Positions 39,782-42,896 of a stretch of DNA of 64,000 nucleotides are shown in pieces. The DNA is from Dehalococcoidia bacterium. Lineage in GTDB: Bacteria; Chloroflexota; Dehalococcoidia; Bin125. The notes below the pieces were generated by a model. It was given only the letters and a program-made list of their open reading frames with translations. It ran no database searches and was not told the DNA's origin. A program made the position numbers and the translations under genes. Every line of letters starts with the position of its first letter. Position 1 is the first letter of the stretch. The stretch is taken from positions 2,671,399-2,735,398 of the forward strand of contig OZ250140.1 in NCBI GenBank assembly GCA_965237475.1. Direction: 5' to 3'.

Positions 39782-39846
39782 GACTCCCGCCTTCCGCCGC
39801 TGCTTACCGCGTCGCATCTCGCGATCGGCGGCTATGGTAGGCGCGA

Positions 39847-40146
39847 ATGCCCCTCTATCTCGCCACCGCGCACTGCAGCGACGGCGCGTTTGCTCGGCTC
39901 GGCCTCGCCGAGAGCATCGCCGCGATCGAACAGTCCGCGCGGATGACCGGAGGCCGCCTGATTGAGGCGCTGCTGCTCGACGCCGACGAGCTGGCGCTGA
40001 TCATCGAGACGCCCGATTCGCCATCGCTTGCGCGCATCCAGCTCGAGGCGCAGGATCTGGACATACAGATACGCGCGCGTCCCGCGCTGCCGCGCATCGA
40101 GGCCGAAGCGCTCGACCGCGCGCATCGAGAGCGGCGACCCGCCTGA
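39847..40146 (+). CDS. Small protein, divergent GYD-domain-like
   Basis: MP.Y...G...GG.L....I.E.PD layout; TATGGT -10 element 8 nt upstream. Confidence 0.5.
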   Translation: MPLYLATAHCSDGAFARLGLAESIAAIEQSARMTGGRLIEALLLDADELALIIETPDSPSLARIQLEAQDLDIQIRARPALPRIEAEALDRAHRERRPA

Positions 40147-40168
40147 ACAACCCGGACGGAGACAGCGC

Positions 40169-40363
40169 ATGACCACCGAATCGCGATGCGAAGAGATGCG
40201 CGCCGAGCGCGCGCGGCTCAACATCGAGGCCGACTCGATGCCCGGCCGGCTGCCGCCCGGGCCTGGCCAGCCAATCGGCCCCGGCAACCCGGAGCTGCGG
40301 CGCATCTACGACCGAATCAACGACTTGCGTAAAGAGCTTCTCGCGCTGGGCTGCACTCCGTAA
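40169..40363 (+). CDS. Hypothetical 64-aa protein
   Basis: GGAG ribosome-binding site before the ATG; helix, Pro/Gly loop, helix, with terminal cysteines. Confidence 0.6.
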   Translation: MTTESRCEEMRAERARLNIEADSMPGRLPPGPGQPIGPGNPELRRIYDRINDLRKELLALGCTP

Positions 40364-40369
40364 CGAGAG

Positions 40370-40398
40370 GTGACAGCCAGCCTCCGTCGCGCTACGAT
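40370..40398 (+). promoter_or_regulatory. Sigma70-type promoter for the riboswitch transcript
   Basis: GTGACA (40370-40375), 17-nt spacer, TACGAT (40393-40398). Confidence 0.7.
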
Positions 40399-40417
40399 GG
40401 CAACACAATTGAATATG

Positions 40418-40599
40418 AGGGCCGAATCCCCGCAGACTGACATCTGGGGGGAACGGGGGACCCAAACCCGTCGGCCGACCACCAGCCACCCAAATTGGCG
40501 CTGGCAGTCGGACGGCAAAGGGGTGAACGAAGCGCAAGCTTCGCGGCACACTTCCTCGTGCCGAACCCGACAGCTAACCCCGTAGGCGACCGAGGGAGA
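40418..40599 (+). ncRNA. Cyclic di-AMP (ydaO/yuaA) riboswitch aptamer
   Basis: Conserved blocks in order: GCCGAATCC, GGAACGGGGGACCCA, GGGGTGAA, CCGAACCCGACAGCTAACCCCGTAGGC; pseudoknot CTTCCTC/GAGGGAG. Confidence 0.92.
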
Positions 40600-40616
40600 T
40601 TCGCGTTTCGCCGGTC

Positions 40617-40649
40617 GCCAGCCGTTGTTTGTTCTGCGGCTGGCTTTTT
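40617..40649 (+). terminator. Intrinsic terminator of the riboswitch expression platform
   Basis: GCCAGCCG/CGGCTGGC stem plus TTTTT; overlapped by the competing hairpin GGCGACCG/CGGTCGCC (40585-40619). Confidence 0.8.
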
Positions 40650-40819
40650 GGTTGAAGCGCGATCGCACAGCTTGTGCATCGCCCCGTCGCTGCGGCCCAC
40701 CCAACTCACGGGAATCTCGTCGGTATACCCGACGTGATGGCCACAGGACGGGGTTTCTCGCTCGCTCCGTCCTGCCTCCTGGGCCGACCCGGGGCTTCGA
40801 AGCCCCGGGTTCGGTCTTT
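40650..40819 (+). ncRNA. Candidate structured small RNA read through from the riboswitch
   Basis: Four consecutive hairpins (40659-40682, 40718-40734, 40744-40774, 40782-40816) ending in TTT; no ORF with an RBS. Confidence 0.45.
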
Positions 40820-40877
40820 AACGACCGCGGTCACTGGCTGGAAGATCGTCGCGCGACCTTTGCGTCGTTCGCCCTAA

Positions 40878-41320
40878 GAATCCTCTGAACAACTCTCCCC
40901 CCCGCTCTGCGGGGACCTGCGCGTAAGTCCCACTGCTCCGACCTTCCCTGCCGGTTGCGGTGTAACGAGGTGACGGTGGGGAGCTTCCGCTATCTGGTGA
41001 GGGCGCGCCCGGAGCCCCCCTCTGCCTGCGGCATCTCCCCCCGCGGAGCGGGGGGAGAGGGGAAATGGAGACTACGCGCGGGTTTCCTCAGGGAGAGAGG
41101 TTGGGAAGGGAGCGCCTGATCCCAAATGCTCCCCCCGCGGGGGAGCTGTCGCGCAGCGACTGAGGAGGAGGCTCCCAGCTGCGTGAGCGGTGGCGATGCG
41201 CGCGGCCTCCCCCTCTGCCCCTGCGGGGCATCTCCCCCTCAGGGGGAGAGATTGGGAAGGGAGCGGATGCCGCTGAAGACATTGGGTGGTCAGCGGGGAT
41301 CCGACTTGTTCAGAGGATTC
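40878..41320. mobile_element. Composite MITE (443 bp) containing a nested MITE (40912-41086) and several palindromic repeats
   Basis: CTAA|GAATCCTCTGAACAA ... TTGTTCAGAGGATTC|CTAA: perfect 15-bp TIR and 4-bp duplication. Inner ends GGGACCTGCGCGTAAGTC ... TACGCGCGGGTTTC match the IS at 33865. Confidence 0.85.
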
Positions 41321-42115
41321 CTAACGGCCCACGAACGCCGGCTGACGCTTCGCCAGGAACGCCTTCGCGGCTTCCTTGTTGTCCTCGCCGGTGAAGGACA
41401 GCCCCACGTGCGCGCCTTCCTGGTAGAGCGAATCGGACAGGTTGTGGTTCGCGCCGAAGTTCAGCGTCCACTTCATCATCGCCAGCACCGATGTCGGGCC
41501 CTGCGCGATCTCACGGCAGAACTCCAACCCGCGCGGGATCAGCTCGTCGTGGGGCACGACCTGCGTCACGATCCCCAGCTCCTCCGCCTCGGCGGCGTCG
41601 ATCCGCCGGTCCAGCATCAGCAGCTCGCGGGCCTTGGTGATGCCGACCATGCGCTGCAGGAACCAGGCGCAGCCGTAGTCGCCCGACACGCCGATGTTGC
41701 GGAACGCCGTGACGAAGCGCGCGCGGTCCGACGCGACCCGGAAGTCGGTCGCGAGGCAGAGGCCCAGACCGCCGCCCGCCGCCGGACCGTTGACCAGCGC
41801 CACCGTCGGCGTGCCCATCTCGTGCAGCATCCCCGAGGTCTGCATCTGACTGCGGTGGCTCAGGCGGTTGCTGACGCCCGGCCCCGGCCGACGCCCGCCC
41901 GAGCGGCTCATATTGTTGATGTCGGCGCCCGCCGAGAAGCCGCGGCCCGCGCCGGTCAGCGCCACGCAGCGAATCTCCGAGTCGTCTTCACAGTCGACCA
42001 GTGCCTCCACCAGGCGCGGCAGCAGGTCCTCGCCGAACGCGTTCAGGCGCTCCGGCCGGTTGAGCGTGATCAGCGCGACGCCGTCGTCCCGCTTGTCGAG
42101 CATCACAGTTGTCAT
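41321..42115 (-). CDS. Enoyl-CoA hydratase/isomerase family protein
   Basis: LNRPERLNA, GRGFSAGAD, VNGPAAGGG, D.G..W.L.R.VG, AFLAKRQP.F.GR. Confidence 0.93.
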   Translation of the reverse strand: MTTVMLDKRDDGVALITLNRPERLNAFGEDLLPRLVEALVDCEDDSEIRCVALTGAGRGFSAGADINNMSRSGGRRPGPGVSNRLSHRSQMQTSGMLHEMGTPTVALVNGPAAGGGLGLCLATDFRVASDRARFVTAFRNIGVSGDYGCAWFLQRMVGITKARELLMLDRRIDAAEAEELGIVTQVVPHDELIPRGLEFCREIAQGPTSVLAMMKWTLNFGANHNLSDSLYQEGAHVGLSFTGEDNKEAAKAFLAKRQPAFVGR

Positions 42116-42191
42116 CGCGAGGTCGTCTTTCCGTTTCGCACAGCAGCACGAAGCGTAGCCGGGCAGTGCGCAGCGATACACTGCGCAGGCA

Positions 42192-42896
42192 ATGTGCGGC
42201 CGGTTCACGCTCACCGTCACCTCGCTGGAGATGTTTGCCCAGACTCAGCAGCTCGCCGCGCAGATTTTCGATCCCGTCCGCTACCGCCCTCGCTACAACA
42301 TCGCCCCGACCAACGAGCACGTGATCGTCCGCATCGAGGCCGAGGATTTCGCCGCCCAGAACGCAAAGTGGGGCCTGATCAACAGCTGGGCCAAAGACGC
42401 GAAGCGGGCCGGACGCCAGATCAACGCGCGTTGCGAGACACTCGGCTCGTCGCGCGTCTGGAAGCCCGCCTTCCAGACGCGCCGCTGCGCCATCCCGGCG
42501 GACGGCTGGTTCGAGTGGACCGGCCCCAAAAACAAACGCCAGCCGCACTGGATTCACCGGCCCGACGCTGAGCCCTTCCTGTTCGCCGGCCTCTACGAAC
42601 GCTGGACCCCGCGCGATGGCGGCGACGCAGCTACGCCGATCACGACCTTCACGATCATCACCACCGACGCCAACGAGCAGCTCGCATCGATTCACAATCG
42701 CATGCCCGTGGTGCTGCCCAACGACCGGCTGGAGGCCTGGCTCGATCCCCGCGTCACGGATCTCGAGCGGCTGCAACCGCTACTGCAGTCCGCGCCCGAC
42801 GACGCATTCGTGAGCCTCGCGGTCTCGCCGCGCGTGAACTCGGTGCGCAACGACGACCCTGAGCTGCTTGCTCCGCAGGAACAGCTTTCTTTCTGA
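42192..42896 (+). CDS. SOS response-associated peptidase (SRAP/YedK/HMCES) abasic-site protection protein
   Basis: MCGRF, RYNIAPT, WGL, INAR.ET, RC.IPADG..EW, H.RMPV. Confidence 0.95.
   Translation: MCGRFTLTVTSLEMFAQTQQLAAQIFDPVRYRPRYNIAPTNEHVIVRIEAEDFAAQNAKWGLINSWAKDAKRAGRQINARCETLGSSRVWKPAFQTRRCAIPADGWFEWTGPKNKRQPHWIHRPDAEPFLFAGLYERWTPRDGGDAATPITTFTIITTDANEQLASIHNRMPVVLPNDRLEAWLDPRVTDLERLQPLLQSAPDDAFVSLAVSPRVNSVRNDDPELLAPQEQLSF

Follow-up and report, generated by a model that had tools for sequence, protein, structure and literature searches.

A c-di-AMP riboswitch aptamer precedes a conserved structured RNA in place of a gene across one order of Dehalococcoidia

Riboswitches that stand before a non-coding RNA are known from EutX of Enterococcus and from Rli55 and AspocR of Listeria, in which the ligand of a B12 riboswitch decides whether the full-length RNA is made; their action is either sequestration of an ANTAR-type regulator or antisense pairing. 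In SreA and SreB of Listeria, riboswitch transcripts double as trans-acting small RNAs. The SAM-I riboswitch/small RNA of Desulfovibrio vulgaris acts on distant mRNAs, according to the available part of the report (bioRxiv 10.1101/803072), and the Vc2 cyclic di-GMP (c-di-GMP) riboswitch of Vibrio cholerae is described, also in the available part of its report, as controlling an upstream small RNA via RNA stability (bioRxiv 10.1101/617340). The usual associations of cyclic di-AMP (c-di-AMP) riboswitches, as far as the accessible text lists them, are K+ and amino-acid transporters, cell-wall remodelling and osmotic-shock genes (PMC7266159). The locus described here lies in a stretch of 64,000 nucleotides (nt), called the window, from the genome of a Dehalococcoidia bacterium (G000; 3.02 Mb, one contig), and all coordinates are positions in that window unless a contig is named. 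Read from 5′ to 3′, it begins with a promoter and a c-di-AMP aptamer, continues with a hairpin resembling a terminator (T1) and a spacer that is variable, and closes with a three-hairpin RNA ending in a second terminator hairpin (T2); the whole is a self-contained non-coding transcription unit (Table 1). The observation is real and broader than a single genome: the composite of aptamer and new RNA motif is fixed across one order of Dehalococcoidia, which in the sample used here is a single family (65 genomes, the same set serving for searches at both levels).

The aptamer is of the ydaO type and matches RF00379 over its whole length (model positions 1-134 of 134) with 73 bits, against a gathering score of 38, and an expect value (E) of 5e-15; a genome-wide search gives the same result. 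All paired columns of the alignment, including the helices and the pseudoknot, are filled, with three pairs marked as non-canonical, and one stem carries an insertion of about 60 nt. An initial annotation of the window, made from the letters and reading frames, had described an intact aptamer with its pseudoknot, and the full-length match bears this out. The only other Rfam family to reach its gathering score in the window is tRNA. The genome also encodes a diadenylate cyclase domain (PF02457, DAC; 122 bits) in an open frame of 318 codons. By the sequence tests available the aptamer is a member of RF00379, and it departs from the class only in its context, since it leads no gene.

The promoter proposed in the initial annotation, GTGACA and TACGAT separated by 17 nt, was recovered at the same place by a promoter-site scan. 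It is the sole promoter-like site in 39800-41600, where 0.1 would be expected by chance, and that scan found no second site between the aptamer and the RNA downstream of it in G000. In 30 of 37 family elements a promoter-like −35/−10 pair precedes a conserved 5′ leader, with the same spacing each time. At its other end the aptamer carries a conserved G/A-rich 3′ tail, a motif kept in the 40 elements compared in which the aptamer is linked to the downstream RNA.

That downstream RNA, termed the module, is 111 nt long (G000:C1:2712108-2712218; 111 bits). Folding of 40710-40822 (113 nt; z-score −5.4) yields hairpin 1, hairpin 2, a linker and T2. The loop of hairpin 2 (40755-40763) is 9 nt long, C/U-rich and nearly invariant across elements. 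A CCTCCT that had been noted earlier for its resemblance to an anti-Shine-Dalgarno sequence coincides exactly with the unpaired linker of the minimum-energy fold; in the largest genus (g7), most elements have CUUCCU instead. Loop and linker are the parts of the module that are both conserved and unpaired, and both are kept across ten genera. T2 is followed by a short U tract, with just four T among the next eight bases, and it contains the 24-nt palindrome of the initial annotation, which was found again as a minus-strand self-match at 40787-40810.

The secondary structure of the module is supported by covariation, as the initial annotation had suggested examining. A covariance model built from eight copies of the same genus was used to align 20 sequences, then rebuilt from these and used to align 43 (37 distinct). 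Standard pairs make up 98.6% of the 992 pair cells in the distinct sequences, 21 of the 27 pairs show changes on both sides, and compensatory changes occur in all three helices, as they did in the earlier set of 20 sequences. The observed pairing and compensation were reached by none of 500 shuffles, and when the partners are slid by 1-3 columns, pairing falls to 36-57%. Fitting the alignment to the model biases it towards the structure, yet the margin remains large. An independent MAFFT/RNAalifold run had already recovered hairpin 2 and T2. A permissive Rfam scan of 40300-41400 returned no family matching the module, all other matches lying far below their gathering scores. With its strong covariation, the module represents a new family of RNAs about 111 nt long.

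Nor does the module look like coding sequence. All six reading frames are interrupted by stops, each in 7-26 of the 37 distinct sequences, and none stays open throughout; between the start of the module and the loop anchor lie 47 to 54 nt, with all residues modulo 3 represented. The earlier statement that no protein gene follows the riboswitch was confirmed: no open frame ahead of T2 is conserved, the gene that comes next is convergent, and no relative carries a gene at this position.

A DNA search with 40370-40877 gave matches in 28 of 41 related genomes. The whole segment is present at 92-96% identity in two genomes of the same genus (g1), and in five others of that genus the match, at 75-77% identity, ends at query positions 450-452, equivalent to 40819-40821 in the window, which is the end of T2. 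Conservation of the downstream segment, which the initial annotation had named as a point to be checked, extends to there. In the family's other genera similarity survives as two islands: the core of the aptamer and roughly 70 nt that correspond to 40746-40822. At all family loci inspected, the parts occur in the order aptamer, variable spacer, hairpin, C/U-loop hairpin, CCUCCU-type linker, and GC hairpin with T tract.

Covariance-model searches found the module in 64 of the 65 family genomes (66 copies) and RF00379 likewise in 64 of 65 (84 copies). Every one of the 66 modules lies 72-142 nt (median 104) 3′ of an aptamer on the same strand, and 18 of the 84 aptamers are without a module. In 48 genomes, among them all 37 of genus g7, the module-linked copy is the sole RF00379 match. 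Among 151 sampled genomes of the class, matches were confined to 7, all of this family, the other 144 having none under strict filters with 25 candidates scored per genome. A loose pattern scan of the whole collection gave at least 120 mostly chance matches, with 4 true modules among 80 fetched loci, and is uninformative outside the order. The anatomy, the covariation, the non-coding nature, the strict coupling of the module to an aptamer and the confinement to one order are thus directly supported.

Table 1. Parts of the element and adjacent features, in window coordinates.
Feature	Position	Strand	Basis
Sigma-70-like promoter (−35 GTGACA, 17-nt spacer, −10 TACGAT)	40370..40398	+	promoter-site scan
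c-di-AMP (ydaO-type) aptamer	40410..40603	+	RF00379 covariance-model match
Hairpin starting in the 3′ strand of the aptamer's closing helix ('antiterminator' of the initial annotation)	~40586..40618	+	minimum-energy and centroid folds
T1, terminator-like hairpin; 9-bp stem 40617-40644, UUUUU at 40645-40649	40617..40649	+	folding
Variable spacer	40650..40709	+	length and sequence differ between genera
Conserved 3′ RNA module, 111 nt, new motif	40710..40820	+	matches covariance models R1 and R2
Hairpin 1, variable sequence on covarying stem	40718..40734	+	fold; 6 of 7 pairs compensatory
Hairpin 2	40744..40774	+	fold; 3 of 8 pairs compensatory
CCUCCU linker, unpaired, anti-Shine-Dalgarno-like	40775..40780	+	sole unpaired stretch between hairpin 2 and T2 in the fold
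T2, GC-rich terminator hairpin with short U tract	40781..40820	+	fold; 12 of 12 pairs compensatory
Inserted element resembling a miniature inverted-repeat transposable element (MITE), between T2 and the convergent gene, outside the RNA unit	40875..41323	.	terminal inverted repeats
Convergent enoyl-CoA hydratase (crotonase) gene, bounding the unit	41321..42208	-	PF00378, E 4e-53

An aptamer followed by a non-coding RNA body in one unit, with 66 of 66 modules linked and a single promoter-like site in G000, and an order-wide pairing of the two, suggest that the signal acts through a regulatory small RNA. The RNA has a promoter-like site at its 5′ end and an unpaired CCUCCU directly followed by the T2 hairpin and U tract. 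The whole element is accordingly read as a riboswitch-gated regulatory small RNA, with a probability of roughly 0.55. The state of the aptamer would decide whether, or in which fold, the 3′ module is made; in G000, binding of c-di-AMP would lead to termination at T1. The full-length RNA would then act in trans through two exposed C/U-rich stretches, the loop of hairpin 2 and the CCUCCU linker, and its probable pairing sites would be the G/A-rich ribosome-binding regions of mRNAs. A bolder version, offered tentatively, makes this RNA a trans-acting hub and, in place of cis regulation of transporter or cell-wall genes, the main RNA-level output of c-di-AMP in the order; the exposed CCUCCU, which stands behind a hairpin and in this resembles the 3′ end of 16S rRNA, would compete for Shine-Dalgarno sites, such that falling c-di-AMP would reprogramme translation of a set of mRNAs.

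Some transcript evidence is available from public RNA libraries. Contigs of four metatranscriptome runs (three studies), chosen because they contain this stretch, bridge T1 from the aptamer into the module; they cover 40480-40826 (X15), 40417-40589 and 40560-40747 (X16), 40497-40677 (X17) and 40495-40778 (X18). The coverage fits one transcript running from near 40404 through T1. The stretches 40000-40375 and 40846-40892 are covered by no RNA-library contig, and these gaps are a weak hint. The X15 contig also differs from the window at 40826-40914, where 87 nt are replaced by 53 other letters, which suggests strain variation at the edge of the insertion that follows the unit.

Several points weigh against a gated, trans-acting RNA, and the first group concerns the gate. 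T1 in G000 looks like an intrinsic terminator in folding predictions (−19 kcal/mol, z-score −3.8). The initial annotation had placed a terminator at 40617-40649; folding recovers the hairpin and its UUUUU there, while a simple consensus terminator scan flagged neither T1 nor T2 (0 sites in 39800-41600). It had further assigned an antiterminator role to the hairpin at 40585-40619, and this role is not upheld: the hairpin overlaps the T1 stem by just 2-3 nt, and the two are not mutually exclusive, coexisting in the minimum-energy fold. No clear alternative pairing to T1 was found in folds of the G000 element. Of the 40 distinct family elements, 19 have a hairpin like T1 together with a U tract and 21 do not, among them 17 of the 19 from g7; genus g3 is without it as well, and gating by termination can therefore not hold in general. 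Both the direction of switching and its mechanism (termination, refolding or decay) are what we infer from the arrangement.

The remaining adverse points come from distribution, transcripts and targets. One genome of the same genus (G006, 94% complete) has neither aptamer nor module. The RNA-library contigs give neither ends nor strand, and the libraries may hold DNA; moreover, the X15 contig continues beyond T2 into the inserted element. Candidate targets were sought in G000 by scanning the translation start regions of 3269 genes called by third-position GC content. With 13-nt seeds from the loop and the linker, both the first percentile and the minimum fell within the range of 10 shuffled seeds. 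With a 32-nt seed the top gene encodes a vWA/YfbK-type lipoprotein (by Pfam) at −52.1 kcal/mol, an energy also reached by two of 12 shuffled seeds; the next gene follows at −45.4 kcal/mol.

The vWA gene was followed in relatives, where 19 of 30 orthologous loci were evaluated, each against the small-RNA seed of its own genome; the other 11 were left out because no small-RNA locus was in hand or, as in G006, none is present in the genome. The site ranked at 0.03-0.28% in six genomes of g1, which belong to two subclades, at 3.6% in G019, at 1.8-9.5% in ten genomes of g7, at 27% in G007, where the start codon is clearly miscalled, and at 67% in G008, all against the G000 background rather than that of each genome, and among relatives that are not independent. 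One of the evaluated loci gave no start codon. The small RNA of G074 has an A where its relatives have G, and its vWA mRNA has the matching U. The vWA start region of G006, the genome without the small RNA, resembles the site of its relatives. The vWA lipoprotein gene is a lead only. Genes for family-5 solute-binding proteins were considered as targets through the loop and the Shine-Dalgarno sequence, and were rejected: the complementary codons are not kept in orthologues (74-77% identity), and the Shine-Dalgarno sequence does not track the difference between CCUCCU and CUUCCU. The 3.0-Mb G000 genome has 42 matches to PF00496, the family-5 solute-binding protein family, many of them in tandem clusters, and several share an N-terminal motif.

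Among other explanations, the one that survives best, unlikely as it is, has the riboswitch-gated RNA sequester a protein in the manner of EutX and Rli55, with the loop of hairpin 2 and its neighbours as the binding site. A loop that stays nearly invariant while its stem covaries is what a recognition site would be expected to show, and the lack of a significant signal in the base-pairing scans points the same way. Against this, no conserved neighbouring gene accompanies the unit across genera, and an exposed CCUCCU beside a terminator is a feature typical of base-pairing small RNAs.

It is also improbable that the module is not an effector at all, and serves as a long-range expression platform, as the stabilising 3′ end of an RNA that buffers c-di-AMP as a sponge, or in the folding or decay of its own transcript. 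The folds lend this some substance. In the minimum-energy fold of 40560-40880 from G000, segments of the spacer pair with hairpin-2 sequence, so that such pairing may occur. The g7 consensus fold pairs the 3′ strand of the aptamer's closing helix, together with the tail, with a conserved segment about 110 nt downstream, and also draws a further closing helix, round both hairpins, that competes with the base of T2. Because their columns are invariant, these long-range pairs lack compensatory changes and are neither supported nor refuted. In a putative pairing between the aptamer tail and either the loop of hairpin 2 or the linker, the partners are nearly invariant and show no covariation to judge it by; the same holds for putative pairing of spacer segments with hairpin 2 or T2. 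A mere stabiliser, however, would need neither an invariant loop nor an exposed CCUCCU across ten genera.

Action of read-through in cis on the convergent hydratase gene, by antisense pairing or transcriptional interference, is very unlikely. The hydratase gene is the convergent neighbour in most g1 elements and in L011, L014 and L018 (g7, g8), and one RNA-library contig, as said, extends past T2; yet the strong, GC-rich T2 lies in between, at least nine elements, spread over six other genera, are bordered by different genes, some on the same strand, and the conserved module would stay unexplained. The antisense RNA against the crotonase gene that the initial annotation had envisaged fails for the first two of these reasons, the intervening terminator and a neighbour that differs between genera. 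What persists of that annotation is the absence of a gene and a downstream structured RNA tied to the aptamer; the antiterminator and the antisense action find no support. Least credible is a small protein encoded downstream, for instance by the frame GTG-40674/ATG-40737, whose 67 codons are open in G000 and its closest relative: it has no Pfam match, its ATG is ATC in five relatives of the same genus, it reads across T2 into unconserved sequence, none of the frames is open in all 37 distinct modules, spacing changes by amounts other than multiples of three and the stems covary as RNA, so that coding conservation is absent.

The module-linked aptamer has beside it other RF00379 copies in the same family, which resemble the usual type. 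The second aptamer of G000 (G000:C1:883100-883225, minus strand; locus L002; 51 bits) lies upstream of a radical SAM gene whose match to the KamA family (E 5e-37) is below the NCBIfam curated cut-offs. This pairing may represent riboswitch control of a beta-amino-acid osmolyte pathway, a suggestion only. Thirteen further module-less aptamers were fetched, and 10 of them precede genes with the same N-terminal pattern (judged by eye); of the other three, one stands before a small cysteine-rich frame, one is a weak aptamer with degenerate module-like sequence after it, and one was not located by the sequence anchor used. Since the other aptamers of the family precede KamA-family genes, the riboswitch class is in normal use there. 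The G/A-rich tail after the aptamer differs between module-linked and gene-linked copies, which places the tail in the expression platform of the module-linked ones. At L182 (G018:C20:600-1900) an aptamer stands upstream of a cysteine-rich frame of about 75 codons with two CxxC pairs. At L189 (G018:C227:2600-3900), degenerate module-like sequence comes after a weak aptamer (39 bits); covariance model R2 has no match in it at E 1e-4, and this may be a decaying third copy.

Downstream of T2 in G000, the inserted element has 32-nt terminal inverted repeats (40875-40906 and 41292-41323; 81% complementary), and holds internal G-run/C-run palindromes with weak Rfam whalefall-1 matches (22 bits against a gathering score of 37). 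Five relatives of the same genus lack the insertion in the sequence inspected, and it is not seen in L006, L007, L009, L010 and L011. The initial annotation had argued that without it the stop codon of the crotonase gene would adjoin the segment, and in L006, L007, L009 and L010 the stop indeed lies about 10-60 nt from T2. Arrays of similar repeats occupy the same intergenic spot in L004, L008 and L018. On the other side, neither Pfam nor NCBIfam gives a match for a frame of 64 codons (40169-40363, plus strand) just 5′ of the promoter; a C-terminal end resembling that of this frame is found upstream of the element in L011 and L019.

On the bolder reading, if true, this riboswitch would be the first of the c-di-AMP class for which action by way of a small RNA is known. 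With the pairing of aptamer and module kept in every sampled genus of the order, and as the sole such riboswitch in 48 of 65 genomes, the element would add a trans-acting layer to c-di-AMP signalling. The module also gives a rare handle on RNA regulation in Chloroflexota. In the available parts of the reviews and literature searched, c-di-AMP riboswitches appear solely as cis regulators of adjacent genes, and no c-di-AMP riboswitch controlling a small RNA was found there; supplementary gene-association tables could bear on this claim. A literature search joining Dehalococcoidia with small RNA or riboswitch returned no paper naming Dehalococcoidia among the matches listed.

Compared with canonical RF00379 riboswitches, the element shares the aptamer class and the presence of a diadenylate cyclase domain in the organism, but it controls no open reading frame and is followed by a conserved structured RNA with its own terminator; from the gene-linked copies of its own family it is set apart by the 3′ tail of the aptamer. 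With EutX, Rli55 and AspocR it has in common a riboswitch placed before a non-coding RNA, whereas the ligand class differs, an antisense target was not found here, and for a protein partner no dedicated search was made. In SreA/SreB and the SAM-I RNA of D. vulgaris the terminated riboswitch is itself the small RNA and a gene follows, while here there is a separate module and no gene. Vc2 is similar in coupling a cyclic-dinucleotide riboswitch to the level of a small RNA, and differs, as far as the available text describes it, in its ligand c-di-GMP, in having the small RNA upstream and the coding gene tfoY downstream, and in acting through stability rather than read-through. The concept of a riboswitch-controlled non-coding RNA is therefore already known, and, against the literature as far as it was available, its combination with a c-di-AMP aptamer would be new.

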